From Thermomicrobiales bacterium (GTDB lineage Bacteria; Chloroflexota; Chloroflexia; Thermomicrobiales; UBA6265), in assembly GCA_041390745.1 (NCBI GenBank), contig JAWKPJ010000001.1, positions 515,387 through 579,386 of the forward strand: 64,000 nt of DNA, written 5' to 3'. The notes beneath the pieces are model-generated. The model was not told where the DNA came from. It saw only the letters and a list, made by a program, of their open reading frames with translations, and ran no database searches. Position numbers and translations under genes: made by a program. Position 1 is the stretch's first letter; every line of letters starts with the position of its first letter. This document shows positions 29,569 to 61,038 of this stretch, one piece after another.

Positions 29569-30519
29569 ATGGACGGCCACCAGTTCCTGCCGCGGCGGCC
29601 AGCGTTGGCCACCTCACGGCGCTCGGCGTTGAGCGCGCTCCTCGCGATACCCGGTGCAACCTCGCTGGCCTCCGTCGCCGCAAAGAAAAAGAAGAAGAAG
29701 AAACGCTGCTCGCCTTGCAAGCGGCGCAAGAAAGGCAAGTGCAAGACGAACAAGCTGGACGGCGCCGCCTGCCCCGAGGGGATCTGCCAGCACGGGAATT
29801 GCCTGCCTATCTCCCAGGACTTCACCACACCCGGCAACTTCACCTTTACCTCTCCCCGGGCCGGAACCGTGACCATCGACGCCTTCGGCGCAGGTGGCGG
29901 CACGGGCGGCAGGGGCGGCACGGGCGGTGCAACCGAGGGCGGTACCCCCGGCGTTCCGGGCCTTGGCGGCAGGGTCACGGCCACCATCGCCGTTGCCGCT
30001 GGCGAGGTGCTGGAAATCCGCGTGGGCGGCGCCGGCGGCAATGCCGATAACGGTTATGCCTACCCCGGGCTCGGTGGCGACGGAGCAGGTGGTCAGGGAG
30101 GCGTGGGAGGTCTGGGAGGCCCCAGCGTCGGCGGGGACCCCGGCTACCCTGGCGGTAACGGGACAGGCAACGGCGGCGGTGGCGGGGGTGGCGGTGGCGG
30201 CGGCGCCGCATCCACGGTGCGCCGCAGTCCCTTCGCAGTCGCAGACACCTTCCTCGTGGCGAACAGCGGTGGCGGAGCCGGCGGAGGGGCAGGCGGGTTC
30301 GGGACCGGCGGCACAGGCGGGGATGGCGGCGAGGGCTGGGGTGCGGGCATGGCCGGCGTTCCAAACGGTGGCGTAGGCACCGCCGGCATGGACGTCAATG
30401 GCGTCTCCGGCGGCGCCCCAGGCGTCAGCGGCACGGCCCTTGGCCCACCGGGCGCCACCTTCGAGCCAGACCTACGGGCCGGAGATGGCAGCGTTACAGT
30501 GACCTTCACACCCGCCTGA
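29569..30519 (+). CDS. Tat-signal secreted protein: Lys/Cys-rich N-terminal segment plus glycine-rich (ALK-GRD/Gly_rich-like) domain
   Basis: An AGGAG RBS lies 8 nt before ATG 29569. The signal is MDGHQFLPRRPALATSRRSALSALLAIPGATSLASVAA, followed by KKKKKKKRCSPCKRRKKGKCKTNKLDGAACPEGICQHGNC. Then comes FTFTSPRAGTVTIDAFGAGGGTGG...GGRVTATIAVAAGEVLEIRVGGAGG...GGGGGGGGGGG...FLVANSGGGAGGG...GDGSVTVTF. Confidence 0.6.
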   Translation: MDGHQFLPRRPALATSRRSALSALLAIPGATSLASVAAKKKKKKKRCSPCKRRKKGKCKTNKLDGAACPEGICQHGNCLPISQDFTTPGNFTFTSPRAGTVTIDAFGAGGGTGGRGGTGGATEGGTPGVPGLGGRVTATIAVAAGEVLEIRVGGAGGNADNGYAYPGLGGDGAGGQGGVGGLGGPSVGGDPGYPGGNGTGNGGGGGGGGGGGAASTVRRSPFAVADTFLVANSGGGAGGGAGGFGTGGTGGDGGEGWGAGMAGVPNGGVGTAGMDVNGVSGGAPGVSGTALGPPGATFEPDLRAGDGSVTVTFTPA

Positions 30520-30570
30520 TCAACCGGCGGCGCTGGTCACCTCCTTCGCTGGCATGACAAGACCGCGCGC

Positions 30571-31296
30571 ATGGAACGCATCGCACTCATCTCCGACATC
30601 CACGGCAATATGCCGGCGCTGGAAGCTGTGCTCGATGACATCGCGCGCAGGGGGATGACGCGCATCCTCTGCCCGGGAGATATGGAAGGCCGGGGACCTC
30701 GCGGGGCAGATGTGGTTGACCGGGTGCGTGCCTGCTGCGAGGCCGTGGTGCGCGGCAACTGGGAGGACGGCCTGGCGGCTGCTGACATCGACCACCCGTT
30801 GGCCAGATGGCATCTGTCGCGGCTCGGTTCGGATCGCCTGGCCTGCCTCGCGACTCTGCCATTTTCGCTGGACACGGTGCTGAGCGGGCGGCACATCTGC
30901 CTGCCCCACGCCTCACCGCAAAGTGTCAATGCGCACGTCTTTCCCGACGCGCCGGAAGAACGGCTGCTCGCGATGTTCGAAAACTCTGACCTGACCGGCG
31001 ATGGTCCACTGCCGGACATCGTGATCTACGGCGACACCCATGTTCCGGCCTGGCGTCCGTTCGGCTCACGGGTGCTGCTGAACGTAGGCAGCGTGAGTTC
31101 GCCGCTGGATGGGCAATGTGACGCCACCTACGCGATCATCGAGGGTCACGCAGGACCGGCAGTCGCCGCCCTGGGCCACACCATCGTCCGGGTTCCCTAT
31201 GACGTGGAGCGGGCCATCCGGGATGCGAGCGAGGCAAGGCTTCCCAACTGGGAGGTTTACGCCACCGATCTTCGCACGGGGCAGTTCACCGGTTAG
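30571..31296 (+). CDS. Metallophosphoesterase (YfcE/MJ0936-like)
   Basis: The motifs are ALISDIHGN, CPGDMEGRGPRG, VRGNWE, IYGDTH and LLNVGSV. Confidence 0.8.
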   Translation: MERIALISDIHGNMPALEAVLDDIARRGMTRILCPGDMEGRGPRGADVVDRVRACCEAVVRGNWEDGLAAADIDHPLARWHLSRLGSDRLACLATLPFSLDTVLSGRHICLPHASPQSVNAHVFPDAPEERLLAMFENSDLTGDGPLPDIVIYGDTHVPAWRPFGSRVLLNVGSVSSPLDGQCDATYAIIEGHAGPAVAALGHTIVRVPYDVERAIRDASEARLPNWEVYATDLRTGQFTG

Positions 31297-31496
31297 CGCT
31301 CCTCCTTCCGCACCTGCCGCCGCACTCAGCGACTTGCAGAAGATACGGCCCGCGCAGCACTTGCTCCTCCACCGCCCGCTGTGTAGGTATTGCGCGGCGA
31401 TAGCTGGCACTTGCGCATTTCTACGGATGGTCTCTGCTCCCCTGCGCTGCAGAATGCAAGCCAGGGTACGTCGCACCTGTTCAACTGGAGGCCGCT

Positions 31497-31782
31497 ATGG
31501 AAACTGCTCGCTTCACTGCTCTCGCCCGGCGCCTGGGGCGCCGTTGCTCCGCCCTGGCCGGCGCTGCACTCATCGTCGCCTCGCACCTGCCCCCAGGCGC
31601 CTGAGGAAGCACAGGGCCGGAAGAAGCGGCGACGCAAAATCTGCAAGCTGGAAGCAACCCGCTGCGGCCGGACGTGCGTGAATACACGCACCGATCCCCG
31701 CCACTGTGGCGGGTGTGACAAGCGGTGCGATGCAGGGGTGGAGTGCGTGAACAAGACCTGCGGTGGGCCGCAGCCCGTCTGA
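31497..31782 (+). pseudogene. Small secreted Cys-rich (STIG1-like) protein, frame interrupted at a C5 run
   Basis: A GGAGG RBS lies 7 nt before ATG 31497. Frame 0 gives the signal METARFTALARRLGRRCSALAGAALIVASHLPP and then TGA at 31602. Frame 1 continues QAPEEAQGRKKRRRKICKLEATRCGRTCVNTRTDPRHCGGCDKRCDAGVECVNKTCGGPQPV (stop 31780-31782). The switch lies at CCCCC 31590-31594. Confidence 0.5.
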
Positions 31783-31804
31783 CAACCGTCTGCACCTGAG
31801 CCAG

Positions 31805-31832
31805 GCGACCCGGCCAGCGATGGCCGGGTCGC
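31805..31832. terminator. Bidirectional stem-loop between convergent genes
   Basis: An 11-bp perfect stem (GCGACCCGGCC / GGCCGGGTCGC) with a 6-nt loop lies between the stops at 31782 (+) and 31847 (-). Confidence 0.6.
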
Positions 31833-31846
31833 GGTCTGCGACAATC

Positions 31847-33466
31847 CTACGCGATGCGCTCGCTCAGGCCCGGCGTCGGCGTGGGAATCCACCACTCCTC
31901 GCCGCGCTCGGTCTGCACGTACTCGGGCCAGCGCAGGTCGATGGGCGGCGTGAAGTCGCGCCCCAGCAGCGGCGCCACCCACTTGCTGCCGCCCACGCCG
32001 CCGCCCGTGCGCTCGTTGAACTCCTGCGTCGCCTTCTCCAGTTCTCCCTCAACCGTCAACAGGTCAAGGATGGTGCCGGCGATCGTCTTCGAGGCCATGA
32101 ACATGCCGGGGTCGATGATGGCGGGCACCCCGCCCATCGCGTTGTAGGCCCAGTTCGGATACTCGTAGCCGTGGTACGGCGTGCGCAGCACCGGCCGCCC
32201 GGTGAACACGCGCACCGTCGGCGCGTGCCACGTGTAGTCCGTGTAGTCATCCGACGTGAAGTTCTTCTGCCATTCCGGCAGTAACTTGCGCGTCTCCGCC
32301 TCATACTCCCTTGGGTCCGTCAGGGAGGTGAAGGCCTCCGGGAAGGGGTTGGCCATCGGCTCCAGGCCCAGGTTGCGCTGCAACTCTCGCGCGAATTCCA
32401 GCGCCTCCTCGGAGTATTCCGGCGCGCCGGCCAGCTCCATGTTGCGGAAGGTGAGGTCGGCCATCGCGTTGTTGGAGAGGCCCGGCCGCGTCCTGGTCAC
32501 CCACTGCACGTGCGCCTGGCAGCCAGTCGCGCCCGCCGCGTGCTTGGCGTTGTTCGCCAGCACGCGGTAGATCTGCTCCTGAATCTCCAGGGTTGGCGCG
32601 CGCCACGAATACTGGATCTGGCTCCAGCGGGGCGGCAGGTTGTCCGAGGTCGCGTCACCGGCGGCCAGGATGAACTCGTTGAGGGTCCACGTTCCCGTGT
32701 GCGGGAACATCGCCTCCTTCGTGTACTTGGTTAGCGTGTACATCAGGCAGAGCGCATCGATAGCGCCCGGCGTGCGAACCGAGCTGTGCGGATTCGCCGC
32801 GCTGTCTTCGTGCGCCGTGGGCGATGCCCCCTTGACCTCCCACGCCTCGGGCTCCGCGCACTCGAAGGTAAAGACCGCGCTCCAGTAGGAGCCACAGTGC
32901 GTCTCCCAGACGGTCGTATTGGCGTTCAGCGGGTGATAGGAGATAAAGGCGTCGGCGTCGTCGAAGTAGCCCTTGGCGGCGTGGACCGGCTTGGAGCCGC
33001 ACACCTTCTCTGCCGGCTCGCCGAAGAACTTGAGCGTACCGGGGATGTTGTACTTCTCCATGGTCGCCTTGGCCGCCAGGATGCCGCCTAGCGCCCCTAC
33101 GCCCAGCATGGAGTGCGGGTCGGTGTGGCCCGCTGCGTACGGGTGCAGCCCCTCGCGCGGCGCGCGGTACGGCACAGCCTGCTGGGAGTTCCCCGGCACC
33201 GCGTCATATTCGGCGTAGGAACCGATCACCGGCCCGCCGCTGCCCGAAGTCCAGGTCGCCATGAAGGCGGTCGGCATCTCGCCGCTCCCAACCTCGACCT
33301 CGAATCCCTCGTCGCGCAAGAGGTCGACATACGCCCTGGCGGAGCGGTACTCCCGCCAGGCTGGTTCGGCGTAGCGCCAGATTTCCATGTCGAAGTCAGA
33401 AAGACGCCGCTCGTTCTCATCGACCCAGTCGAACGCAAACTGCTTCGCCTCGTAGAGGCTGGACAT
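31847..33466 (-). CDS. M20-family amidohydrolase (AbgB / aminobenzoyl-glutamate utilisation protein B-like)
   Basis: An AAGGAGGG RBS precedes ATG 33466. EYDAVPGNSQ...GHTDPHSMLG...LKFFGEPAEK is typical of M20D/AbgB-like enzymes. Confidence 0.8.
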   Translation of the reverse strand: MSSLYEAKQFAFDWVDENERRLSDFDMEIWRYAEPAWREYRSARAYVDLLRDEGFEVEVGSGEMPTAFMATWTSGSGGPVIGSYAEYDAVPGNSQQAVPYRAPREGLHPYAAGHTDPHSMLGVGALGGILAAKATMEKYNIPGTLKFFGEPAEKVCGSKPVHAAKGYFDDADAFISYHPLNANTTVWETHCGSYWSAVFTFECAEPEAWEVKGASPTAHEDSAANPHSSVRTPGAIDALCLMYTLTKYTKEAMFPHTGTWTLNEFILAAGDATSDNLPPRWSQIQYSWRAPTLEIQEQIYRVLANNAKHAAGATGCQAHVQWVTRTRPGLSNNAMADLTFRNMELAGAPEYSEEALEFARELQRNLGLEPMANPFPEAFTSLTDPREYEAETRKLLPEWQKNFTSDDYTDYTWHAPTVRVFTGRPVLRTPYHGYEYPNWAYNAMGGVPAIIDPGMFMASKTIAGTILDLLTVEGELEKATQEFNERTGGGVGGSKWVAPLLGRDFTPPIDLRWPEYVQTERGEEWWIPTPTPGLSERIA

Positions 33467-33738: not shown

Positions 33739-34983
33739 ATGGGCCATCACGGTCTGGAGGTCTCCGTGCGCAAACCCTGGGATCCAATCAGCGAAATGCA
33801 GGCCGCGAATCGCGCCCTCAAACGCGAAATGATGCGGGACCTGGAGGACATGAGCCGCCGCGAGCTCATGAGGCGCGGCATCAAGCTGGCCGCCGGCGCG
33901 TCTGCCGCCAGCCTGCTCTTCCAGGCGGGTATCCCGCTTCACACGTACGCCCAGACGCCGGCGGTTGAAATTCCCCCGCTGCCAGAGTTCACCGAAATTC
34001 CCGAGAACCTCAAGGGCAGCGGCGAGGTCCGCGTCCAGTCCTGGGGCGGCGCCTTCCAGGACGCCCAGCGCGAGGCCTACTTCATCCCCTTCCAGGAGCT
34101 GTCTGGCATCAAGGTCATCGAGTCTGAGGGGCCTGACCCGTCCAAGATCAAGGCCATGGTCGACACCGGCAACGTCGAGCAGGATGTCGTGCAGATGGAC
34201 CGCTCGGACATCATGCTGCTTGAGAAGCAGGGTGACTACTGGGAGGAAATCGACTACTCCCTGTTCGATGTCGACAACATCGACGAAAGCCACCGCTACA
34301 AGTATTCGGTCGATATGCTCCCGTACGCGACGGTGATCGGGTACCGCACCGATGCCTTCCCCGAAGGCCCGAACACCCAGGCCGACTTCTGGAACCAGGA
34401 GGCGTTCCCTGGCCCGCGCACCACTACAGCCGGCACCGGCGGCGTCACGCCGTTCCTGGAGGCTGGCTTCATCGCCAACGGCACCGCGTTGGATGCCATC
34501 TACCCGATGGACATTGAGCAGGGCTACGAGTACTTCAACGCCATCAAGCCCTACGTTGCCAAGTTCTGGGAGGCAGGCGCCCAGCCCGCCCAGATGCTGA
34601 CCGACAACGAAGTCGTCATGGCGCACTCCTGGAACGGCCGCATGCATGCCATCCAGCAGGAGGGCGCGCCGGTCAAGGTGGTCTGGAACGAGGCGCAGCT
34701 CGCCACCGATGTCTGGGCGGTGCCCAAGGGCGCGGCCAACGCAGAGAATGCCATGAAGTTCTCCGCGTTCATTACGCTGCCGGTCTCCCAGGCCCGGCTT
34801 AGCTACCTGATTCCGTACGGCTCCGTCAACAAGGCCTCGGCTGCCCTGATGACGCCAGAGCAGTTGGAGAACTTGCCGACATCTCCTGCCTACCTGGACC
34901 TCATGTCGATCCGGGATATCGCCTGGTGGGTGGACAACCGCGATGCGGTAACCTCCCGCTGGAACGAGTGGATCCTCGAGTAG
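33739..34983 (+). CDS. Spermidine/putrescine-type (PotD/PotF family) ABC substrate-binding protein, Tat signal, no adjacent transporter genes
   Basis: The Tat signal is MSRRELMRRGIKLAAGASAASLL, followed by VRVQSWGGAFQDAQREAYFIPF...VWAVPKGAANAENAMKF. The true start is possibly ATG 33850 (MSRRELM). Confidence 0.8.
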   Translation: MGHHGLEVSVRKPWDPISEMQAANRALKREMMRDLEDMSRRELMRRGIKLAAGASAASLLFQAGIPLHTYAQTPAVEIPPLPEFTEIPENLKGSGEVRVQSWGGAFQDAQREAYFIPFQELSGIKVIESEGPDPSKIKAMVDTGNVEQDVVQMDRSDIMLLEKQGDYWEEIDYSLFDVDNIDESHRYKYSVDMLPYATVIGYRTDAFPEGPNTQADFWNQEAFPGPRTTTAGTGGVTPFLEAGFIANGTALDAIYPMDIEQGYEYFNAIKPYVAKFWEAGAQPAQMLTDNEVVMAHSWNGRMHAIQQEGAPVKVVWNEAQLATDVWAVPKGAANAENAMKFSAFITLPVSQARLSYLIPYGSVNKASAALMTPEQLENLPTSPAYLDLMSIRDIAWWVDNRDAVTSRWNEWILE

Positions 34984-34985
34984 GA

Positions 34986-35025
34986 ACCCTCACGCCATCC
35001 CCTCTCCCGGTGCGCGGGAGAGGGG
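34986..35025. repeat. REP-like palindromic element, family 1 (inverted relative to 26361-26404), positioned as a terminator hairpin
   Basis: ACCCTCACGCCAT is followed by CCCCTCTCCCG (34999-35009), a GTGCG loop and CGGGAGAGGGG (35015-35025). It starts 3 nt after stop 34981-34983 and is followed by CTCTTTG. Confidence 0.75.
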
Positions 35026-36164: not shown

Positions 36165-36863
36165 ATGGCCACCAACGTTCCAAAGGAGACGCCTGTCCCT
36201 GCGCCTGCGCCGGTTTCGCGCTCCGGCCGCCGCCGCCTCCTTGCAGCACTCGCGCTGACTGCCTTACGTGCTGGTTCCTTCCTGGCAAGCTCGCTCCAGC
36301 CCGAAACCACTGCCGCCGATCCCCTCGATCGCGCACGCCGCCGCAAGAGCAGCCAGCGCAAGAAGCGGCACAGCCGGCTGGAGAAGCGCCGCAGGCGGCA
36401 TCGCGGCGCAGGAAGCACGAGCCGGGACAACCGCAAGGGCATTTACCTCAACATCCTCAGCGAGGAGCATGCGTTTTCAGCCGAGATCTGGGGCGGCAAC
36501 TTTGGCTGGGAGCTCATCCAGAGCATCGATCTGTCACCGAGGTTTGCCTACCGCTGGGACGGCGAACACAATCACGTGGGCTTGCATCTGGTCAACCTTG
36601 GTCTGTCCAACCCGTTCATCTGGGTAGAAGCTGGCGCAAACGACCGTGAAGTCGGCGTGGCCGTGCAGGATGTCGGGGCCATGACCTTCACCGGGTACGT
36701 TGGCCCCTACGAGCTCGCTCCCGTGAAGTTGGCCCAGGGGCAATCGGTCGAGGCGAAGGCCTTCGCGAACATTGACCGCAAGATTTCCGTCCGGATCGAG
36801 CGCTTGTCGGACACCGTGCATAACCGCGTTTTCAAGATCACGCTGGGGAAAGCGATCTACTGA
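36165..36863 (+). CDS. Tat-signal secreted protein with a polybasic linker and an uncharacterised domain of about 140 aa
   Basis: ATG 36165 follows GGAG. The signal is SRSGRRRLLAALALTALRAGSFLASS and the linker is RARRRKSSQRKKRHSRLEKRRRRHRG. I do not recognise the beta-rich C-terminal domain. The ORF-track start at 35766 overlaps the merR-like gene. Confidence 0.5.
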   Translation: MATNVPKETPVPAPAPVSRSGRRRLLAALALTALRAGSFLASSLQPETTAADPLDRARRRKSSQRKKRHSRLEKRRRRHRGAGSTSRDNRKGIYLNILSEEHAFSAEIWGGNFGWELIQSIDLSPRFAYRWDGEHNHVGLHLVNLGLSNPFIWVEAGANDREVGVAVQDVGAMTFTGYVGPYELAPVKLAQGQSVEAKAFANIDRKISVRIERLSDTVHNRVFKITLGKAIY

Positions 36864-40695: not shown

Positions 40696-41724
40696 CTAGA
40701 ACTGCTTGCCCTGGAACTCGGCTGCGTTGTCCTTGTCGAAGAAGCGGTCCTCAACCTTCACCCAGTCGGGAATATCCTCGCCATCGATGTACTTCTGCAT
40801 CGTCTCGAAGGCGATTGGCCCAAAGAACGGGCTCGATTCCACCGACGCGCCAAGGGTGCCGTCGAGAATGGCGTCCAACGCGGCGTTCTCGCCGTCGATG
40901 GAGACGACGATGACATCCTCGCCCGGCTTGCGCCCCGCCTCCTGCAGCGCCGCGATGGCTCCGATCGCCATCTCGTCGTTGTGTGCGTAGACCGCCGTCA
41001 CGTCCGGGTGCGCGGCGAGCAGCGTCTGCATCACCTCGCGGCCCGGGTCTCGCTGGAAGTCTGCCGTCTGCGAGGCGATGATCTCCATGCCCGGGAACGC
41101 GCCCTCCGGCGTCGGGGTGCCCCGGAAGTTCCCCGCCAGGTAGTCTTCGAACCCCGTCTTGCGGTCGATAGCCGGGTCAGAGCCCGTGGTGCCCTCAAGC
41201 TGGATGATCTTCGCCTCACCACCCGTCGCCTTGGCCAGCCACTCGGCAGCGCGGCGCCCCTGATCCACAAAGTCGGAGCCGATGAATGTCACGTAATCCT
41301 CATCCGGCCTGGCGATGCTGTGATCGACATCGCGGTCAATGAGGATCACCGGGATGCCAGCCGCCTTGGCCTTCATGACGCTCGGCGCCAGGGCCTGCGA
41401 CTCGCGCGGCGGGAAGATGAGGATATCGACGCCCTGCGCGATCAGCGAATCGAGGTCCGCAATCTGCTTCGCCGTATCCTCGTTCGCGTTCGTCTCGATC
41501 AGCGTGTAGCCGAGGCGCTTGGCCTCATCCTGCATACTCCTGGATTCACCCAGCCGCCAGGGGTTGTTGCTGCCCACCTGCGCGAAGCCTACGGTGTAGG
41601 TGTCCTTCTTCTCCAGCGGCGGCGGCGCGGCGGCAACCGTGCCGTAGCGGCTGGCCACGACCAGGCCGGCAGCGGCGGCGGACAACTTGAACGTGGAGCG
41701 GCGGGACAGGCGATGGTGAAGCAC
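40696..41724 (-). CDS. Sugar ABC transporter substrate-binding protein (RbsB-like, Tat-type signal)
   Basis: GTG 41724 follows GAGGAGGAAG. The signal is LSRRSTFKLSAAAAGLVVAS, and YTVGFAQVGSNNPWR...DILIFPPRE...VILIDRD is typical of periplasmic sugar-binding proteins. Confidence 0.85.
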   Translation of the reverse strand: MLHHRLSRRSTFKLSAAAAGLVVASRYGTVAAAPPPLEKKDTYTVGFAQVGSNNPWRLGESRSMQDEAKRLGYTLIETNANEDTAKQIADLDSLIAQGVDILIFPPRESQALAPSVMKAKAAGIPVILIDRDVDHSIARPDEDYVTFIGSDFVDQGRRAAEWLAKATGGEAKIIQLEGTTGSDPAIDRKTGFEDYLAGNFRGTPTPEGAFPGMEIIASQTADFQRDPGREVMQTLLAAHPDVTAVYAHNDEMAIGAIAALQEAGRKPGEDVIVVSIDGENAALDAILDGTLGASVESSPFFGPIAFETMQKYIDGEDIPDWVKVEDRFFDKDNAAEFQGKQF

Positions 41725-41987
41725 GGCGCTCTTCCTCCTCGAACAGCGTGCGGGCCAGGAATGGCTCCGCGGGGTGGAAGCCGCTGCGCAGCGGCTGCAC
41801 GCACATCCCGGCAAGAAACCCCAGCGGCAACGCACTGATCCAGGCAACCATTCCCTTCCGGAGCAGCGGTATCGAAGCGTTTCTTTCGTCCAGGATGTGC
41901 GCCATGAATACTACCGGGATCACGGCGACCGTCAAGCGGCTGGACGAAGTGAAGTAGCATATCTCAGCAACCATTAGCACCACGAAC

Positions 41988-48437: not shown

Positions 48438-50066
48438 TTAGCTGGTGTACTTCATCTCCTTGACCAGAATGAATCCGTCCAACCGCGGCGTCCACTCCAG
48501 GTTTGCCGCCAGCCCGTAGTTGAGCGGCATGTGGATGATCGGGATCGCGCCGTAATCCTCGTAGAACATCGCAGTCACGGCGGCCAGCGCCTCCTGGCGC
48601 GCTTCGCCCGTGAGCGGGAGAGCCGCATTGAGCGCCTCATCGAGTTCCGGGTTGCAGTAGGTCGAGGACCCACCGTCGCAACTGTAGTAGGCGCGCGCCG
48701 TGCTGCTCACGTCCATGATCTCGTTGCCGTGGGGGTTGGTGCCGATCCAGCCGCGATCCACCGGCACATCGTGGTAGTTGATGTCGTACTGCTCGTTGTA
48801 CTGGGCAACCTCGATGACCTCGCTCGTGGCGTTCAACCCAATATCGTTAAGTTGGCTGGCCACATACTGCGCGAACTCCGCATTACGCAGGTAGATGCCC
48901 TGCCGGGTCGCGACGACAATCGGCGCGCTGACATCTACGCCATCGGCCGCAGCCTCTGCCACGAGCGCCTTGGCGGCTTCCATATCGTACGGGTAAGGCT
49001 CAAGTTCGGCGTTGTACCCGGTGGCCGAAGGGCCGACCAATTGCGACGCCGCTTCCCCGCCGCCAAAGAGCGAATCGGCGACGCCCTGCTTGTCGATCGC
49101 CATGCCGATGGCTTTGCGGATACGGAGATCGCTCATCGCCGGGTGCATGGTGTCGAGGCGCAGGAAGATTGTCTCCACGCTCGAGGCCGTCACGCACTGC
49201 GGCGTCGTGGCGCAGTCTTCCGGAGCGAGGAAGCGCGCAAACTGCGCCTCGCCCGTGTTCACCATCGCCGCCCGCACCGCCGACTCCGGCCGGGCGACGA
49301 ACTCGACATCCTTGATCGTCACGGCTCCGTAGGCGTCGTCCGCCGTGTTGCCCCACCACTCAGGAAACGCTTCGAGCCGCAGGGCCTGCCCACGCGTCCA
49401 GTCCACGAACTTGTACGGCCCGGTGCCAATCGGGTCAACCGGCAGCGTTTCCGGGCGCTCCTGCACCTGGATCATGTTGGGGATGGGGGAGAAATAGAGG
49501 CGCGACGGCAGAATCGGGTCGGGCGCCTCGGTTTCGACATCGATGGTGTACTCATCGACCACCGTGGCGTTCATGTCCGGGCCGACATACTGGTAAATCT
49601 GGAAGTTGTTTTCCGGCGACCACGTGTAGTTGATGCCGAACGCCGCGACCTCGGCGTTGAAGGGATCGCCGTTGTGGAACGTCACGCCCTCGCGCAGCTT
49701 GAACCGCCAGACCGTATCGCTCGTCTGTTCCCACGACGTTGCCAACTCACCCACCAGCTCGTTGGTCACCGGATCGCGGTTGAGCAGCGCTTCCATCACG
49801 TTGCGCAGCACGGGGTGGCCGTCCGTGCTGTACGCGCGCCAGTTCTCCAAAGTGTCAATCTCAACCGTCATGGCCAGCACGATCTTGCCGGTCGGCGCTT
49901 CGGCATCCTGCGCGCGCACCGTTGGCGCCGAGCGCGGCAGGAGCGCGGCGGCCGGAATCGACACGCCAAGCGCCGCCGCCCGCAACGTCAGTTCACGACG
50001 CGAGAGGCGGCCACGCGCCGCATCTTCGATCAGCCGGTCGAGTTGGACCCGATGCTGCCGTCCCAT
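48438..50066 (-). CDS. ABC transporter substrate-binding protein, family 5 (DppA/OppA-like), Tat signal
   Basis: A GGGAGG RBS is present. The signal is LSRRELTLRAAALGVSIPAAALL, followed by LVGELATSWEQTSDTVWRFKLREGVTFHNGDPF. Confidence 0.88.
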   Translation of the reverse strand: MGRQHRVQLDRLIEDAARGRLSRRELTLRAAALGVSIPAAALLPRSAPTVRAQDAEAPTGKIVLAMTVEIDTLENWRAYSTDGHPVLRNVMEALLNRDPVTNELVGELATSWEQTSDTVWRFKLREGVTFHNGDPFNAEVAAFGINYTWSPENNFQIYQYVGPDMNATVVDEYTIDVETEAPDPILPSRLYFSPIPNMIQVQERPETLPVDPIGTGPYKFVDWTRGQALRLEAFPEWWGNTADDAYGAVTIKDVEFVARPESAVRAAMVNTGEAQFARFLAPEDCATTPQCVTASSVETIFLRLDTMHPAMSDLRIRKAIGMAIDKQGVADSLFGGGEAASQLVGPSATGYNAELEPYPYDMEAAKALVAEAAADGVDVSAPIVVATRQGIYLRNAEFAQYVASQLNDIGLNATSEVIEVAQYNEQYDINYHDVPVDRGWIGTNPHGNEIMDVSSTARAYYSCDGGSSTYCNPELDEALNAALPLTGEARQEALAAVTAMFYEDYGAIPIIHMPLNYGLAANLEWTPRLDGFILVKEMKYTS

Positions 50067-54678: not shown

Positions 54679-57297
54679 ATGTCATCTCGTACATCTGATG
54701 GAACTGCTCCGGAAGCAGAAGCCCTGCCGGAGCAGGCCGCACCAGAGCAGGCTGCACCGGTCAAGCCGCGCGCGACTCGCTCGCGCAGCCGCAAGACCGC
54801 GCGCAAGCCACCGCAGGTGATGCTGCCGGTGCTCGTGGTCGCGGAGACCATTCTGCTGCCCCACATGTCGATCCCCTTTCCCATTGAAGATGAAGAGGCC
54901 GCGCGCGTCGTTGAGCGGGCAACGCGCGGCGAGAGCCGCCATGTCCTGGTCCTGACCGAGCGCCCCGTTCCGCCAGACACTGGCGCCCTGGACGAGGATG
55001 GTGAACTGCGCGCCCTTCTGGCAGACGCCATTATTGAAGCGGCAGCCCACTCCAACCTTGATGATGAGCCGCAGTGGATTCCCGATCCCGAGCCAGCGCC
55101 ACAGGAGTATGAGCTGTGCGGCGTCGGCGTGATCGCCGAAATCGCCCAGTTCCGCCCCAGCGGCAGCCGCCACGTGGTGTTGCAGGGCGTTGCCCGCGGC
55201 ATCGTGACGGAACTGGTACAACAGGAGCCCTATCTCGTGGCGCGGGTCACCCGCCACGATGACCCGGTCGATTCCACCTCCGCCGCCGAAGCAGCCATGA
55301 CCGCCGTCATGGAGCAGGTGGAAAGCTACATCAGCATGCTTCCCAACGTGCCGGAAGAAGTGCTGACGATGGTGCGCGGCGTCGAGGAGCCTGGCTGGCT
55401 CTCGGACCTCATTGCCTTTTCCCCGGAGTTCACCTCGGACCAGCGGCAGGAACTGCTGGAAATCCTGGACCCAACCGAGCGCCTGCACCGCCTGAGCATC
55501 CTGATCCAGAAGCGGCTCGATGTCATGAACCTGCGCCAGCAGATTCAGACCGAGGCGCAGGCCGGCATGGACAAGCAACAGCGCGAGTACTACCTGCGCG
55601 AGCAGCTTCGCGCCATCCAGAAGGAACTCGGCGAGGCCGGTACCGAGGCAGCCGTCGCGAACGAGCTGCGCGACAAGATCGAGGCCGCCGGCATGCCCGA
55701 GGAGGTGCGGCAGAAGGCCCTGGTGCAGGTGGAGCGGCTGGAACAGCAGCACCCCTTCTCCCCGGAGATCGGCGTAATCCGCGGCTACCTGGACTGGCTG
55801 ATCGACCTGCCCTGGTCCACAGAAACGGTGGACCGGCTCGACCTGGCCGAGGCGGCGCGCGTACTCAGCGAGGATCACTACGGCCTGGAGAAGGTCAAGG
55901 AGCGTATCCTCGAGTTCATCGCCGTCCGCAAGCTCGCGGGCGACCGCCTGCGCGCTCCCATCCTCTGCTTTGTCGGCCCTCCCGGCGTCGGCAAGACGAG
56001 CCTTGGCCGCTCGATCGCGCGCGCCATTGGCCGCAACTACGTACGGATGTCTCTGGGCGGCGTGCGGGACGAGGCCGAAATCCGGGGGCACCGCCGCACC
56101 TACGTTGGGGCCATGCCTGGCCGCGTCATCAAGGCTCTCAAGGACGCCAAAAGCCGCAACCCGGTGCTGGTGCTGGACGAGATCGACAAGGTCGGCTCGG
56201 ACACCTTCCGGGGCGACCCGTCGTCGGCCCTGCTGGAGGTTCTGGACCCGGAGCAGAACACCACCTTCTCCGACCACTACCTGGAGGTGCCGTTTGACCT
56301 CTCCAAGGTGATCTTCATCACGACCGCCAACTTGCTGGACCCCATTCCCGCCGCGCTGCGGGACCGCATGGAGATCATCGAAGTCACCGGCTACACCGAA
56401 ATTGAGAAGATGGCGATTGCGCGGCAATTCCTGCTGCCGAAGACCCTCGATTCTCACGGCCTGGAGCCGGACCAGTTGGAGGCCACCGACGAGGCCCTGC
56501 GCAAACTGATCCGCGAATACACCGAGGAATCGGGCGTCCGCAACCTCGAACGCGAGATCGGCTCGCTCTGCCGCAAGGTGGCCAAGATCCTGGCAGCAGA
56601 CAATCCGCCCGCCTCCATCACGGTTGATGCGGACGATGTCGCCGCCTACCTCGGCGTCCCGAAGTATGACTACGGACTCGCTGAAGAGCAGGACGAAGTC
56701 GGCGTGGCCACCGGCGCGGCCGTCACCAGCGTTGGCGGCGACCTGCTCGGCATCGAGGTGCTGATCATGCCCGGCAAGGGCGATCTGATCCTTACCGGGC
56801 AGCTTGGCGAGGTGATGCAGGAGTCCGCCCGCGCCGCGCTCTCCTACGCCCGCGCCCGCACGGCAGACTACGGCCTGCCGGCGGACTTCTTCGACCGCAA
56901 CAACATCCACGTCCACGTCCCGGCGGGCGCCATTCCCAAGGATGGTCCGTCTGCTGGCATCACCATGGCCACCGCGCTCATCTCCGCCCTCACCGGGCGG
57001 CAGGTGCGCAAGGATGTCGCCATGACCGGGGAGATCACCCTGCGCGGCAAGGTCCTCCCTATCGGCGGCTTGCGCGAAAAGACCGTTGCCGCGCACCGGG
57101 GCGGCATCAAGACCTTTATCCTGCCGCGCCGCAACGCCAAGGATCTCGCCGAGTTGCCCGCCGTCGTTCGCGACGGCATGGAATTGATCCAGGTCGACTC
57201 GCTGGAGCAGGTGCTCTCCGCCGCCCTCCTGCCCTCAACAGCGAGCGTCGCGCCGCTTCTGCCCCCCGCTGGCGGCGTCGCGCCGCTGCACGGCTAG
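54679..57297 (+). CDS. lon: ATP-dependent Lon protease (LonA)
   Basis: Walker A GPPGVGKTS, Walker B VLVLDEIDK and the catalytic Ser in PKDGPSAGITMATAL are present, with the N-domain LPVLVVAETILLPHMSIPFPI. The N-terminal 46 aa are low-complexity, so the start is uncertain. Confidence 0.97.
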   Translation: MSSRTSDGTAPEAEALPEQAAPEQAAPVKPRATRSRSRKTARKPPQVMLPVLVVAETILLPHMSIPFPIEDEEAARVVERATRGESRHVLVLTERPVPPDTGALDEDGELRALLADAIIEAAAHSNLDDEPQWIPDPEPAPQEYELCGVGVIAEIAQFRPSGSRHVVLQGVARGIVTELVQQEPYLVARVTRHDDPVDSTSAAEAAMTAVMEQVESYISMLPNVPEEVLTMVRGVEEPGWLSDLIAFSPEFTSDQRQELLEILDPTERLHRLSILIQKRLDVMNLRQQIQTEAQAGMDKQQREYYLREQLRAIQKELGEAGTEAAVANELRDKIEAAGMPEEVRQKALVQVERLEQQHPFSPEIGVIRGYLDWLIDLPWSTETVDRLDLAEAARVLSEDHYGLEKVKERILEFIAVRKLAGDRLRAPILCFVGPPGVGKTSLGRSIARAIGRNYVRMSLGGVRDEAEIRGHRRTYVGAMPGRVIKALKDAKSRNPVLVLDEIDKVGSDTFRGDPSSALLEVLDPEQNTTFSDHYLEVPFDLSKVIFITTANLLDPIPAALRDRMEIIEVTGYTEIEKMAIARQFLLPKTLDSHGLEPDQLEATDEALRKLIREYTEESGVRNLEREIGSLCRKVAKILAADNPPASITVDADDVAAYLGVPKYDYGLAEEQDEVGVATGAAVTSVGGDLLGIEVLIMPGKGDLILTGQLGEVMQESARAALSYARARTADYGLPADFFDRNNIHVHVPAGAIPKDGPSAGITMATALISALTGRQVRKDVAMTGEITLRGKVLPIGGLREKTVAAHRGGIKTFILPRRNAKDLAELPAVVRDGMELIQVDSLEQVLSAALLPSTASVAPLLPPAGGVAPLHG

Positions 57298-57319
57298 GCG
57301 AGGACAAGACCCTCGGACC

Positions 57320-57360
57320 GCCTCACTCCCGGCGTGCCGGGAGTGAGGCTTTTCCTTTCT
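57320..57360 (+). terminator. Rho-independent terminator of lon
   Basis: A 13-bp stem (GCCTCACTCCCGG / CCGGGAGTGAGGC) with a CGTG loop is followed by TTTTCCTTTCT. Confidence 0.9.
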
Positions 57361-57610
57361 CAGGCAAAACGTGCTTCTGCTCAGCCCTGTCACGTTTCTT
57401 GCCTGGCCGCGTTGCCTGCTGGTCGCGTTCGACTGCCAACATCCGCGCTGCCAGTCCGGTTCCCGCCGCCTGACCCGATGATCTCACCCGGAACAATGGC
57501 TGCGACGTGCTCCGGCAGGAACGTTCCCCAATCGCTGCAGTGGCCTGGCTTGCCCGCCATCGAGTTCGGGGTCCAGTCGCAACGACGGCGGCAGGCGCCA
57601 TTCGCGTCGC

Positions 57611-57636
57611 GTTCCGAGCGGAGTCGAGGGATCTCG
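57611..57636. repeat. REP-like element, family 2 (single arm)
   Basis: GTTCCGAGCGGAGTCGAGGGATCTCG shares CCGAGC...GTCGA.GG.TCTCG with 43518-43547, and GAGCGGAGTCGAG with 10616-10628. Confidence 0.5.
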
Positions 57637-57721
57637 TTGCAGCCCGTTCTATGAGTCCGGCGAGTTCCTTTGCTTTCACGCCGAAACTCGTCGTCGATGC
57701 GGCGCTCCGGGAACCTTGCCG

Positions 57722-58003
57722 TCACCCGAACGTGTTTCGTGGTTGACGACCGCCCAGCGCTCGTTCGCCGGCGACGGACCACCCACGCGGCGCGTCATCA
57801 GACTTCCCCTGCACCCACTTTCCGCTCGCGTTCTTGTGGTACTTCTCCTTCACGGCGCCCCAGGCTACCCGGTGCGCCCGCTCCTCTTCGTGCCCGTATT
57901 CATCCCAGGCGCTGTTGAACGCCTCCTTGTAGATGTCCTGCGCGTGCGCAGGCAGATTGTCCTTCACGCTGTCTGGCAGGTCGCTTCGAGTCGCGTAAGG
58001 CAT
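57722..58003 (-). CDS. chaB: ChaB-family protein
   Basis: MPYATRSDLPDSVKDNLPAHAQDIYKEAFNSAWDEY...AHRVAWGAVKEKY closely parallels enterobacterial ChaB. The last 25 aa or so may be read-through. Confidence 0.8.
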   Translation of the reverse strand: MPYATRSDLPDSVKDNLPAHAQDIYKEAFNSAWDEYGHEEERAHRVAWGAVKEKYHKNASGKWVQGKSDDAPRGWSVAGERALGGRQPRNTFG

Positions 58004-58445
58004 GAGCGCGCTCCTTTCACCCGTCTACACTGCATGTGCCATGCCGGAAAGACGAAGTGCGGGAAGCAGCGCAGTCTTGCAAACGAGCGACTGGCAACCT
58101 GCCTGCATAGCCGCCTGGTGGGTCCGTCATCGCGCTGAGAACGCTGGCAGCCATCGCCGGTCGCCATAGGCTTCGTCGGCAGGGAATGCCCCTGGGCCGG
58201 CGTGCGGGACGCCACGGCCAGCAACCCGCTGATGCACTCCGAAGACGTCACTATCCTCTGCCGGGCCGCCGCACAGACCACATCCGGGGAACAGCAGTAG
58301 TCTGGTCCTGTTGCGACCGATCGGCACGCGGCCCGAAGGTGGCGTTGGCCTCAGCGAGAAGTCGTGTTCTGGGCGAAGTCGCGCGATTTCGTCTGATCAC
58401 GCGCTTGAGCGAGGATTTGCACGCCGGAAGCGAGGAACAGCGCCG

Positions 58446-59120
58446 TCAAACTCGCCGTCGCTCCTGCACAGCGTACGTCAGGTGCGTCACCCTTCCCGTC
58501 GGCTCCGCGCGCACTGGCTCCAATGCCACGCGGTCCGCATCCACGCCCTCAAACAGGCGGACACCGGAGCCAAGCAGCACCGGCGCGAGCGCAATTGTGA
58601 ACTCATCGACGAGTCCGGCGTTCACATATTCCAGGATCGTCGCGCCGCCACCTGCAATACGCACGTCCCGGTCACCAGCGGCTGCCCGGGCCTGGTCCAG
58701 CGCGTGCTCGATGCCCTCGTTGACAAAATGAAAGATCGTTCCCCCCGGCCGCACCCAGGGATCACGCTGATCGTGCGTCACAACGAACACCGGGGTATGG
58801 AACGGCGCATTCTCCGGCCAGGCCAGTTCGCCACCATCGAACATGCGCCGGCCCATGACACTCGCGCCGGTGCGCTCGAAGGTTGCCTGAGCGATGTCGT
58901 TGTCGCGCCCCTCCTCGCCGCCCTCGCCAAGGTTGAGGTTCTCCCGGAAGAAGCGAAGCGGGAAGGCCCAGGCCTGCAACTCCGACCATTGCGCCATCCA
59001 GCGCCGCACATCTGGATCGTCCCGCCTGGCAGGCGAAAATACGTCTGCGACGGGCACAGCATCGGGCGCCATATACCCGTCGAGAGACATGGTCACGCTG
59101 AAAAACACCTCCCCGGCCAT
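58446..59120 (-). CDS. Dihydrofolate-reductase-like (RibD C-terminal domain) family protein
   Basis: FSVTMSLDGYMA...MGRRMF...VFVVTH...IAGGGATILEYVNAGLVDEFTIALAPVLLGSGVRLF is typical of the family. Confidence 0.75.
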   Translation of the reverse strand: MAGEVFFSVTMSLDGYMAPDAVPVADVFSPARRDDPDVRRWMAQWSELQAWAFPLRFFRENLNLGEGGEEGRDNDIAQATFERTGASVMGRRMFDGGELAWPENAPFHTPVFVVTHDQRDPWVRPGGTIFHFVNEGIEHALDQARAAAGDRDVRIAGGGATILEYVNAGLVDEFTIALAPVLLGSGVRLFEGVDADRVALEPVRAEPTGRVTHLTYAVQERRRV

Positions 59121-59626
59121 TAACGCCCGCTCCCCTGCCGCAGCATCTCGGCAGCGTAGGTTGCCAGGTTGTTCAGGGTCTGCTGGCCACCCTCGATCGC
59201 GTGGTACCTCTCCACCGCCGCATCACGCTGGTCCCGGGTCGGAAACACGGTGCGCATCTCGATCTGCGTTGCTGCGCCAATGGAAGCAAAGGTGAGGACC
59301 GACGCGAAGGCGTTGGGATCGTCGCGGAACTCCCCGTGACACAGCGCAATCCGCTCCGGCGGCACGATCTCGGTCCAGGTAATCCACTCCTGGTAGTCTG
59401 TTCCGTCCGGCCCGTGCATCACGAAGTCCCACACCCCGCCAGTTCGGAACACAAAGGACCGCGTGGTGGTGGTAAACCCGTCCGGCCCCCACCACCGCGA
59501 CAGATGCCGCACGTCGGTGAACGCCGCAAACACCAACTCCCGCGGAGCTTCGATGACGCGAGAGATGACGATCTCGCGGTCTGCCGTTGCGGACCGGGCT
59601 GGCGCTGGCTGTCCTGTTGCATTCAT
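59120..59626 (-). CDS. SRPBCC-fold protein (Aha1/AHSA1-like)
   Basis: REIVISRVIEAPRELVFAAFTDVRHLSRWWGPDGF is typical. Its stop overlaps the downstream start (TAATG). Confidence 0.75.
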   Translation of the reverse strand: MNATGQPAPARSATADREIVISRVIEAPRELVFAAFTDVRHLSRWWGPDGFTTTTRSFVFRTGGVWDFVMHGPDGTDYQEWITWTEIVPPERIALCHGEFRDDPNAFASVLTFASIGAATQIEMRTVFPTRDQRDAAVERYHAIEGGQQTLNNLATYAAEMLRQGSGR

Positions 59627-59629
59627 CAG

Positions 59630-59971
59630 CTACTCCTCTTCCGTTGCCTGCTTGAGGTCCTGCACGTAGGCATCCAGCCGGTCGAAGCTCCCGTTCCAGA
59701 AGTGCGTGAAACCGCCGGTCCACTCGTGAACCGAACGCAGCCCACGGGCATCCAGGCGATACAGGCGCTGCTTGCCTGACTGGCGCAGCCGCACCAGTCC
59801 GACCTCTCGCAGTACCCGCAGATGTTTGGACGCCCCTGGCTGGGACATCCCCAGCGCCCGGGCCACGTCGGTCACCGGGCGCTCACCCGCCCGCAACAAC
59901 ACCAGAATCTCCCGGCGCTGCGGCTCAGCTATCGCGTTGAAGACATCTGACGTTGTCGCTGCTCGTGCCAT
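59630..59971 (-). CDS. ArsR/SmtB-family transcriptional regulator
   Basis: FNAIAEPQRREILVLLRAGERPVTDVARALGMSQPGASKHLRVLREVGLV is the winged HTH. The start was taken as ATG 59971 (MARAAT) because of the promoter geometry. ATG 59983 is an alternative. Confidence 0.85.
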   Translation of the reverse strand: MARAATTSDVFNAIAEPQRREILVLLRAGERPVTDVARALGMSQPGASKHLRVLREVGLVRLRQSGKQRLYRLDARGLRSVHEWTGGFTHFWNGSFDRLDAYVQDLKQATEEE

Positions 59972-59978
59972 GTCCTCA

Positions 59979-60006
59979 ATCATATTCTGATACAGGCATA
60001 TGTCAA
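59979..60006 (-). promoter_or_regulatory. Candidate sigma70-type promoter giving a leaderless arsR-family transcript
   Basis: On the minus strand, TTGACA (60006-60001) is followed by a 16-nt spacer and TATGAT (59984-59979). Seven nt later comes ATG 59971. Confidence 0.4.
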
Positions 60007-60303
60007 GCCTTCGGGGCTTGCTGTACGCCCTGGGGCGCTGCTTCCCAACCATTTCCTGCCCGACGCGGCCAGACCTACCTCCAGCACCCACACCCCGGTT
60101 GCCACCATGCCATCCCGTACGGCACGCCCAGTCGTTTCCAGTCTGCCCGTCGCCGGTGCGACGGTCTCGTCTCGCCCGCCTCTGACACAGCAGCGTTGAC
60201 AGCGAAACCTGAACCTGCATACTGCAACCGAAACCTCAAGAGGTGCAAAAGTAGAAACGTGCGCCCTCTGCCTCCTCAAAGGGGTGCGCGACCGGAGTAT
60301 TGA

Positions 60304-61038
60304 ATGCAGGGCTCTCAGTTCGACGATGTCGTTAAATCTTTCGCACAGTCGTTTTCTCGGCGTCTTCTTCTCGGGGGTGTCGCCCTGGCGCCGGGCAGCG
60401 CCCTGGTCGAGATTGCGGCTGCCCAGGAGACCAGGCAGCGACCCGCAGAGCAACCTGCGCCTGTCGCCGGCGAGCAGGCATGCAGAACATCCGGGGCAGC
60501 GTGCGCGAGCACCTCAGATTGTTGCGACGGTTTTTGCCATGCCTACGGCGGAAAGTGCGTCAAGAAAAAGGGGAATAAGGGCCGCAAGCGGCGGGTGCTG
60601 ACCGGCAACTGTCGATGCGACAGCGCGCCAGGCGAAGCCGGCATCAGCAATGCGGTGCTTGGGGCGGTCCTGCCCGTCGCCGCGCCCGGGTATCGCCTGC
60701 AAATGACCGAGTTGGTCTGGGAGCCCCGCGCCTATTCGACCAGTCACAGCCATCCCCTGGCGCAAGTCGCCTGCGTCCTGGAAGGCAAGCTCGGCATGAC
60801 CCTGCAGGAAGGCGCCGCCACGCTGACACGCGGCGGCACGGGGGCAACGCCGGACAGCGCCGAACCCGTGGCCTTGAATCAGGAAATTGTGCTCGGGCCG
60901 CGGGACTGCGTCTTTTACGACGAGTACGCGACCCACACCGTACACACTGCCTGGAACGCCAGCAAGGGCACGACGCGCATGTGGATGGCCGATTTGGTCA
61001 AGATTGGCGAGCCCTACATCACCTATGTTCCCGAATAG
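60304..61038 (+). CDS. Tat-signal secreted protein: Cys-rich knot plus polybasic linker plus cupin domain
   Basis: The signal is FSRRLLLGGVALAPGSALVEIAAAQ. It is followed by ACRTSGAACASTSDCCDGFCHAYGGKCVKKKGNKGRKRRVLTGNCRC. The C-terminal cupin-like domain has SHSHP...VLEG. Confidence 0.55.
   Translation: MQGSQFDDVVKSFAQSFSRRLLLGGVALAPGSALVEIAAAQETRQRPAEQPAPVAGEQACRTSGAACASTSDCCDGFCHAYGGKCVKKKGNKGRKRRVLTGNCRCDSAPGEAGISNAVLGAVLPVAAPGYRLQMTELVWEPRAYSTSHSHPLAQVACVLEGKLGMTLQEGAATLTRGGTGATPDSAEPVALNQEIVLGPRDCVFYDEYATHTVHTAWNASKGTTRMWMADLVKIGEPYITYVPE

Follow-up and report, generated by a model that had tools for sequence, protein, structure and literature searches.

Tat-type leaders and cationic cysteine-rich modules in front of varied cargo in secreted proteins of Thermomicrobiales

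Four genes, g1 to g4, were analysed within a stretch of 64,000 nucleotides from a Thermomicrobiales bacterium (assembly GCA_041390745.1, contig JAWKPJ010000001.1, positions 515,387 to 579,386; the whole stretch, with a GC content of 65%, is referred to as the window). Each had been described in an earlier note as a twin-arginine translocation (Tat)-type signal followed by a dense Lys/Arg run. The pattern is real: a Tat-type leader and a cationic Cys-rich module are located in front of varied cargo, with g1 and g4 included by a hidden Markov model (HMM) of the leader and g2 probably included. The basic residues are under selection, as seen from near-invariant Lys and Arg in the module of g1 and from the charge kept in a loop of g4. 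In the reading that we favor, with a probability of roughly 45%, g1, g4 and probably g2 are members of a large, Thermomicrobiales-restricted class of secreted proteins, in which a cationic disulfide-knot tag, incompatible with the general secretory (Sec) pathway, would be exported by Tat and bind anionic surfaces.

The part that is homologous between g1 and g4 is the signal peptide, M-D-x-x-R-F-D-x-L-x-R-x-L-x4-S-R-R. A leader of this type (FD leader) was defined as N-terminal M-[DE]-x-x-x-[FL]-D-x-h-x-[RK]-x-h with S/T-R-R 4-6 residues on, and a leader HMM was built, independently of the window genes, from the GTDB loci of a leader-only scan (see below). Against this HMM, g1 and g4 scored 21.6 bits each, a value reached by none of 300 shuffles, and both carry the FD leader as defined; the leaders of g2 (1.4 bits, not significant, with a likeness seen by eye only) and g3 (8.2 bits, a weak score corresponding to generic RR plus a hydrophobic core) do not. 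The N-terminal likeness beyond shuffled sequence that had been expected among the four genes was thus found for the leaders of g1 and g4, and was absent from the basic/Cys segments and from the leader of g2. The proposal of one "leader module" shared by all four genes after the signal was not borne out: the homologous part is the signal peptide of g1 and g4, g3 shares composition only, and the basic/Cys segments are not homologous to one another, being three Cys-rich module types (CPPC in g1, Stig1-like in g2, and knottin-like in g4) and a Cys-free tract in g3.

The RR motifs of the four genes, TSRRSAL (g1), GRRCSAL (g2), SGRRRLL (g3), and FSRRLLL (g4), follow the pattern S/T-R-R-x-hydrophobic-hydrophobic, and an RR pair is present in 140 of the 147 top representatives of the class described below. 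The hydropathy of the hydrophobic (h-) region, taken as the maximum 13-residue Kyte-Doolittle value, was 1.87 for 107 leader proteins among the matches listed, which is below the value of 2.68 for the Sec-like signals of module-less cupin paralogues and in the direction expected of Tat signals.

The gene g1 (29569-30519, + strand) is an open reading frame (ORF) with a Shine-Dalgarno (SD) sequence and codes for a secreted protein of 316 amino acids (aa), in which a Tat-type leader is followed by a cationic mini-domain with six Cys ("CPPC") and by a Gly-rich C-terminal domain. The predicted signal peptide (residues 1-38, 29569-29682, + strand; MDGHQF...TSRRSALSALLAIPGATSLASVAA) contains SRR, a G/A/L-rich h-region, and a VAA cleavage-type end. 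It is followed by the cationic module (residues 39-78, 29683-29802, + strand; KKKKKKKR-CSPC-KRRKKGKC-KTNKLDGAAC-PEGIC-QHGNC) and then by the Gly-rich cargo (29803-30519, + strand). No direct match of g1 was found in Pfam or NCBIfam; the relatives P0004 and P0006 carry PF12810, and P0001, P0002, P0003, and P0005 are g1 homologues with the same order of parts, i.e., an M-D-x-x-x-F-D...SRR leader, a basic/Cys-rich stretch, and a Gly-rich domain.

Upon alignment of g1 residues 39-78 with 42 independent modules, six Cys and one Gly were invariant, with all the invariant columns kept in g1, and K16, R24, G27, P34, G36, and G42 were conserved in at least 90%. The CPPC module, defined by a K-run, the spacing C-x2-C-x7-C-x8-10-C-x4-C-x4-C, and Gly both ahead of the third Cys and within the last hairpin, was found in g1 and not in g2, g3, or g4. 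A total of 82 of the 147 top representatives carry this g1-type module (K-run, C-P-P-C-K-K-R-K-x-G-K-C-K-x3-P-D-G-T-x-C-x-G-G-x-C-Q-x-G-x-C), with invariant Cys and near-invariant basic positions, indicating that the "low-complexity" run of g1 is part of a conserved domain. Within this subclass the module has a charge of +9.2 over 43 aa, the remainder has a mean charge of -3.5 and is zero or negative in 73 of the 82 proteins, and a Pro-rich linker is located past the module in about half of the proteins. The charge is therefore confined to the module, indicating a tag-linker-cargo layout and not a uniformly cationic peptide. The module had no match in Pfam, NCBIfam, or PDB sequences, and its AlphaFold2 (AF2) model was of low confidence (predicted local distance difference test score, pLDDT, 59) with no Foldseek match. 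Evasin-1, the best PDB profile match, was rejected as a relative since its E-value of 0.05 is not significant.

The gene g4 (60304-61038, + strand) codes for a secreted cupin of 244 aa, whose Tat leader is of the FD type and whose Cys module is knottin-like. Its predicted signal peptide (residues 1-40, 60304-60423, + strand; MQGSQFDDVVKSFAQSFSRRLLLGGVALAPGSALVEIAAA) is 86% conserved in 20 orthologues, with a helix at residues 5-16 in the AF2 model. The Cys module from C60 to C105 (60481-60618, + strand) consists of C-x6-C-x5-CC-x3-C-x6-C, a polybasic loop (60559-60594, + strand; VKKKGNKGRKRR), and C-x-C, and is kept in P0007-P0025. In about 20 g4 orthologues the leader MDGSRFDDVVKAF..SFSRR, the Cys knot, the polybasic loop, and the C-x-C pair are all kept. 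The loop contains 6-9 K/R per 10-12 residues and no D/E in 20 orthologues, and its identity is 56%, compared with 90% for the cupin domain. Since the K/R count is kept while the sequence of the loop drifts, selection acts on its charge and not on its sequence. Proteins with other cargo also contain the g4 module, namely P0106 (897 aa), P0113 (612 aa), and P0128 (510 aa). The knot scored 19 bits against PF02950 (Conotoxin), below the cutoff of 25.1, and was modelled by AF2 with a pLDDT of about 60-70.

The cargo of g4 (60640-61038, + strand) was assigned as a cupin domain from Pfam, AF2, and Foldseek. The score against PF07883 (Cupin_2) was 22.2 bits, below the cutoff of 27.2, but the AF2 model had a pLDDT of about 90 and led by Foldseek to TM1459-type cupins (E = 1e-6, probability 1.0), so that the double-stranded beta-helix fold of cupins is predicted despite the sub-threshold Pfam score. 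The cupin family provides an internal control. About 50 paralogues of g4, of about 182 aa, have the same cupin with a plain hydrophobic signal and no module, and in two further paralogues, P0053 and P0060, the g4 kind of leader is combined with Cys-rich modules of other types. All 21 family members with a Cys/basic module carry RR and a weakly hydrophobic h-region (1.70), and the 49 members without the module carry Sec-like hydrophobic signals (2.68). The module goes together with RR and the weak h-region, and its absence with the Sec-like signal.

The size of the class was estimated with profile A2, covering leader and module, against 1.84 billion representative proteins clustered at 50% identity. 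A total of 1,833 clusters were identified at E <= 1e-3, all by N-terminal matches and with lengths of 83-897 aa; the source records of ten sampled clusters gave either no name or just "hypothetical protein", and close homologues of the window proteins are likewise titled only "hypothetical protein [Thermomicrobiales bacterium]". Of the 147 top representatives, the FD leader is present in 142, and the 50 residues past the signal contain on average 11.4 K/R and 5.4 Cys, compared with 6% K/R in the remainder. As anticipated by the earlier note, the cargo is unrelated from one protein to another: in the window it is Gly-rich (g1), absent (g2), orphan and beta-rich (g3), or cupin (g4), and in the class, by Pfam, it includes cupin, Gly-rich, NHL propeller, fn3, SMP-30-like, and metallopeptidase domains, most C-terminal parts being unannotated Cys-rich arrays. 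The Pfam matches among the modules are Stig1, Conotoxin, Dickkopf_N, and Disintegrin. Because of this likeness to extracellular disulfide families and because the number of Cys is even in most cases (67 of 87 and 126 of 147 proteins), the modules are probably disulfide knots. No earlier description of the arrangement was found in Pfam, NCBIfam, PDB, or the literature, and literature on Thermomicrobia or Chloroflexi combining Tat with cysteine-rich proteins gave nothing relevant.

The same Cys patterns bear on the idea that a metal or cofactor (Zn, Cu, or Fe-S) is loaded onto the modules in the cytoplasm, in which case this loading would be the reason for using Tat, with the basic residues only incidental. 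Proteins loaded with a cofactor are classical Tat cargo, CxxC motifs are present (CSPC/CPPC in g1, CxxCxxC in P0001 and P0002), and the cargo of g4 has a metal-dependent fold. The Cys spacings, however, fit extracellular disulfide families (Stig1 above the threshold, and Conotoxin, Dickkopf, and Disintegrin), no conserved His is present, no metal-binding family was matched in Pfam, NCBIfam, or PDB, and solute-binding proteins without cofactor in this organism also use RR signals. Metal or cofactor loading is thus considered quite improbable.

Since profile A2 itself held K and Cys columns, a leader-only DNA pattern was applied to all GTDB species genomes. It gave at least 117 stretches; 80 records were listed and 122 ORFs extracted. 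The matches listed were almost all from Thermomicrobiales/Chloroflexia genomes, with four judged to be chance matches in other phyla. From these, 107 leader proteins of at least 90 aa, a sample unbiased for post-signal content, were compared with 230 control ORFs from the same loci. At least 6 K/R in 10 within the first 60 mature residues were found in 36 of the 107 leader proteins (34%) and in 7 of the 230 controls (3%; Fisher p = 5e-14), and a mature N-terminus with at least four Cys in 78 (73%) and 22 (10%), respectively (Fisher p = 8e-32); 84 leader proteins (79%) have either feature. The seven basic controls were spurious R-rich frames or signal n-regions, and none had a Sec-type signal with a basic run. 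The K/R run starts at residue 44 in the median, the predicted end of the signal. The enrichment of basic and Cys-rich starts in an exported class, as the earlier note had proposed, is therefore upheld, and the pattern is neither general to the Tat substrates of the window nor due to chance.

These numbers also weigh on the view that the four genes have no common function, the K/R runs and Cys clusters being coincidence, low-complexity linkers, or annotation artefacts. In its favor, g2 needs repair of a frameshift and its leader is not significant against the leader HMM, g3 is an orphan without homologues, and the four basic/Cys segments are not mutually homologous. It is opposed not only by the enrichment but also by the Cys and basic positions invariant over 43 modules, by the charge kept in 20 g4 orthologues, and by the window background, in which none of the other genes reaches 7 K/R in 10, and it is given hardly any weight.

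Some members of the class are very short. The ORFs L007 (109 aa, minus strand) and L028 (110 aa) consist of an FD leader and only Lys-rich Cys repeats (e.g., CKKNKVCKNNKC...) or a cationic double knot, and from their sequences are candidates for free cationic Cys-rich peptides. In L008, L045, L053, L089, and L104 from public metagenome-assembled genomes, R/S/A-rich nonsense follows the signal where the relatives have a K-run or CPPC, and these look frameshifted; purine-rich Lys runs may be prone to assembly errors.

The modules might alternatively be the active products, i.e., defensin- or knottin-like antimicrobial, toxin, or signalling peptides forming a diversifying arsenal of the conotoxin kind, with the fused domains as delivered partners or carriers. 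Many antimicrobial peptides combine cationic charge with disulfides, a conserved leader is here joined to very diverse mature parts, and many short members (g2; L007, 109 aa; L028, 110 aa; L039; P0115/P0162) are made of leader and cationic Cys-rich repeats; the Conotoxin, Stig1, and Dickkopf-type matches of Pfam point in the same direction. Against such a role, the charge of the CPPC subclass is limited to about 43 N-terminal residues with an acidic remainder, the module is the most conserved part and not the most variable, ordinary enzyme or binding domains (cupin, NHL, fn3, metallopeptidase) stand behind it, and no immunity-like or transporter gene recurs beside the class genes. An active-product role is therefore regarded as doubtful.

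The precursors of the class start with an n-region helix, M-D-x-x-R-F-D-x-L-x-R-x-L, after which come S-R-R, an h-region of G/A/L with weak hydrophobicity, and AxA at the end of the signal. A Cys-rich mini-domain, often strongly cationic and with the K/R run before or inside the Cys framework, is located directly at the predicted cleavage site and leads, often through a Pro/Thr-rich linker, to a variable net-acidic cargo. Basic residues in the c-region or at the start of the mature protein are a typical trait of Tat substrates and prevent passage through Sec (PMC7317946), which already accounts for the pairing of a polybasic early mature region with a Tat-type signal. By these rules, in the favored reading, the polybasic early mature region would make the precursor Sec-incompatible, so that a Tat-type leader would be carried and co-inherited, and the blocked Sec passage would be the reason why the polybasic start is found only behind, and shuffled with, such a leader. 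Outside the cell, the disulfide-stabilised cationic module could, as its architecture suggests, serve as an electrostatic tag that fixes the cargo on anionic surfaces; the likeliest target would be the own envelope of this monoderm lineage, with other cells, extracellular DNA, or minerals as further candidates. A more specific form of this reading, a lineage-specific display of Thermomicrobiales in which an extended Tat leader and cationic disulfide-knotted tags (mainly CPPC) fix dozens of exoproteins per genome to an anionic envelope layer, seems unlikely to us. If true, it would be a charge-based alternative to anchoring by sortase, lipobox, or SLH, and Tat would have to pass reduced Cys-rich domains that are oxidised only outside.

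Several points weigh against the favored reading. Disulfide-rich domains are odd Tat passengers, since the cytoplasm is a reducing environment and the usual substrates of Tat are folded; the modules would need to be reduced during passage and travel as small hydrophilic segments. Small cationic Cys-rich proteins that stand alone without cargo (g2, L007, L028, and L039) fit an autonomous activity better, and 66% of the leader proteins have no polybasic run, indicating that the charge is not obligatory. The joint occurrence of leader and module may simply reflect the shuffling of both as a single cassette, and the AF2 models of the modules are of low confidence. The leader was assigned as a Tat-type signal from motif and hydropathy, and Pfam TAT_signal (PF10518) gave no match in the four window leaders, with one relative at 16.2 bits against the cutoff of 22.7; since this model is very short, the miss is weak evidence against Tat membership. 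As for the leader itself, 21% of the leader proteins have neither a basic run nor the Cys, which argues against a dedicated sorting signal for the tags, and the FD leader looks like a common form of the Tat signal in this order.

The gene g2 had been described as one gene at 31497-31782, but this stretch of 286 nucleotides is not a multiple of three and is divided into two frames. Part a (31497-31604, + strand) has an ATG with a GGAGG SD sequence and encodes the signal-peptide-like METARFTALARRLGRRCSALAGAALIVASHLPPGA, cut by the frameshift with a stop at 31602-31604. Part b (31594-31782, + strand), in the +1 frame, encodes QAPEEAQ-GRKKRRRKICK and then an eight-Cys Stig1-like domain, and on the sequence a deletion of one C within a C5 homopolymer (31590-31594, + strand) fuses both parts. 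Part b matched PF04885 (Stig1) with 32.7 bits (cutoff 24.1, E = 1.1e-7) and, partially, the MXAN_6577-like Cys-rich model NF041328 of NCBIfam with 37 bits (cutoff 100), and its polybasic plus Stig1-like layout recurs in L014 and L052. Other window genes are also frameshifted, an arginase/agmatinase-like gene (8561-9578), a short-chain dehydrogenase (SDR) gene (9631-10334), and a Tat-signal solute-binding protein gene (1440-3172), and such split genes point to either assembly indel errors or many pseudogenes in the genome. Given these other frameshifts, an assembly indel would be the simplest explanation for g2. Exact look-ups of the repaired and unrepaired products detected no intact copy of g2, a DNA pattern across the C-run gave no match in metagenome contigs, and a protein-guided scan gave distant Stig1-type relatives only, none of them an intact copy; exact look-ups of the two genes beside g2 returned no record. 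The same scan detected L124 (381-1613, metagenome), in which TolB-like PD40 beta-propeller repeats are combined with an FD leader, a stretch rich in Cys, and a Stig1 motif similar to that of g2 (CVNTQTDPRHCGGCDKAC), another case of cargo swapping.

The gene g3 (36165-36863, + strand; third-position GC 0.78) codes for an orphan protein of 232 aa, in which an RR-type signal SRSGRRRLLAALALTAL is followed by a polybasic tract free of Cys (residues 56-80, 36330-36404, + strand; RARRRKSSQRKKRHSRLEKRRRRHR) and by a beta-rich domain. A word-indexed search returned only g3 itself, and among 5.8 billion clusters there were only strain variants (99-100% identity). No match was found in Pfam, NCBIfam, or PDB or by local tblastn and phmmer against the fetched loci and proteins, and neither a family nor a solved structure corresponded to its beta-rich C-terminal domain. 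Polybasic starts of this Cys-free kind are rare among the leader proteins (2 of 107). Thus, g3 is part of the pattern in composition only, with its RR signal and polybasic tract, and is a species-specific orphan.

Such Cys-free tracts could suggest a propeptide or processing signal, with a trypsin- or kexin-like exoprotease cutting the K/R runs after export and thereby releasing or activating the cargo. The runs are indeed placed between signal and cargo, and long Cys-free basic stretches are present in g3, P0003, L015, L035, and L090. In g1 and g4, however, the basic residues are interleaved with invariant Cys in a compact module, which would be a poor protease substrate once oxidised. No protease, sortase, or oxidoreductase gene recurs in the 113 related loci, no protease is located near the four window genes, and no comparable bacterial system was found in the literature. 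Accordingly, the processing role is given little chance, and neither the cleavage at dibasic sites nor the partner protease or sortase-like gene that the earlier note had envisaged gained support. The one gene family that recurs beside FD-leader genes, and the commonest there, codes for a STAND NTPase of 800-1050 aa (20 ORFs from 17 of the 113 loci listed, including L061, L066, L067, L091, L095, L123, and 11 more; none in the window), with a variable N-terminal domain (adenylate cyclase, TIR-like, or XRE helix-turn-helix), an ATPase of the NB-ARC-like type, and TPR repeats. In many cases the two genes are immediate neighbors (17-260 bp apart). The enrichment of the family near FD-leader genes is not separable from its high copy number.

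Within the window, g1 (29569-30519), g3 (36165-36863), and g4 (60304-61038) are uninterrupted ORFs as first reported, each with an ATG start, an upstream GGAG/AGGAG motif, a third-position GC of 0.76-0.78, and the order of RR motif, hydrophobic stretch, and dense basic tract; the original count of four such genes includes g2 only after frameshift repair. The peak number of K/R per 10 residues is 8 in g1 and g2 and 7 in g3 and g4, compared with a background of 54 other candidate genes, where only two have a peak of 6 and all the rest are lower. Cys-interleaved basic segments were confirmed for g1, g2, and g4, with the tract of g3 free of Cys. The four Tat-signal solute-binding proteins of the window do not exceed 2-3 K/R in 10 and are free of Cys over the 100 residues past the signal, in agreement with the claim that they lack the basic segment. 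On reading the sequences, no lipobox L-[AS]-[GA]-C was found at the end of the h-region in g1, g3, or g4; the first Cys of g1 is nine residues past VAA with K/R before it, and the signal ends of g3 and g4 contain no Cys. No C-terminal sorting signal of the sortase/LPXTG type is present in g1 (VTVTFTPA), g3 (TLGKAIY), or g4 (YITYVPE), and the neighborhoods of the four genes are ordinary and not related to one another. A slippery poly(A) tract at the poly-Lys run was considered and rejected, the codons being mostly AAG with the longest A run of 5.

All four solute-binding proteins of ABC importers in the window (1440-3172, 33739-34983, 40696-41847 on the - strand, and 48438-50066 on the - strand) carry RR-type signals. 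Since these proteins without cofactor also carry such signals, Tat may be a general export route in this organism, as it is in Streptomyces and haloarchaea. Two of them have n-regions loosely like the FD extension (MDQRYTRLVEQL..DRR and QLDRLIEDA..SRR). Elsewhere in the window, a secreted barrel protein of the dirigent-like/allene-oxide-cyclase-like type (25066-25560, + strand; PF03018, 32 bits) adjoins a Stf0-type sulfotransferase (25567-26379, - strand).

The findings would define an unannotated class of about 1,800 clusters (50% identity) in a little-studied Chloroflexota order of soil and thermal habitats, whose new six-Cys cationic domain and recognisable leader could be turned into annotation models. 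It would be an extreme natural case of "Sec-avoidance" and raises for Tat the question of how disulfide-rich polybasic domains pass a folding-proofreading translocase. Should the tag prove to be an envelope anchor, it would account for the retention of exoproteins in these monoderms and offer a compact display tag; should it prove to be an antimicrobial knot, the class would provide a new source of defensin-like peptides from bacteria.

Known Tat signals with a Sec-avoidance charge (PF10518/TIGR01409; Bogsch 1997; PMC7317946) resemble the class in S-R-R, the weak h-region, AxA, and the charge past the h-region. They differ in that the n-region of the class has a conserved 13-residue extension, M-D-x-x-R-F-D-x-L-x-R-x-L, found in one order only, and in that the known charge consists of one or two residues, whereas that of the class is a run of 6-9 K/R, usually inside a conserved Cys-rich domain. 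The n-region motifs YSIRK-G/S of Gram-positive surface proteins and ESPR of autotransporters mark large secreted or surface subsets exported by Sec. The conserved n-region motif of the class likewise marks a large secreted/surface subset of one lineage, but motif, translocase, and taxa are different, and the FD leader, known from sequence, is also present on proteins without the cationic tag. Non-covalent surface retention in monoderms is carried out by LysM, GW, SLH, and choline-binding repeats, and polybasic membrane-binding tails are known in K-Ras, MARCKS, and the "basic tail" salivary proteins of ticks. The layout of module, linker, and cargo and, as proposed by analogy, the charge binding to anionic polymers or lipids would be shared with these; there is no kinship in sequence or fold, and the module of the class is N-terminal, about 40 residues long, and disulfide-knotted.

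With respect to the modules, the g4 spacing C-x6-C-x5-CC-x3-C-x6-C is that of inhibitor-cystine-knot peptides and conotoxins (PF02950), and six class members have weak Conotoxin matches, but the g4 module, which is attached to a cupin, has a C-x-C pair and a polybasic loop in addition and remains below the Pfam threshold. The eight-Cys domain of g2 is above the Pfam threshold for Stig1 (PF04885; compare NF041328) with the motif C...D..HCGGC...C..G..C..K.C, but is bacterial, has a Tat-type leader and a polybasic run in front, and matches the NCBIfam model partially. The combination of leader, cationic Cys module, and cargo is covered by none of these nearest known concepts, and the class that carries it is large and lineage-restricted and contains a new domain.

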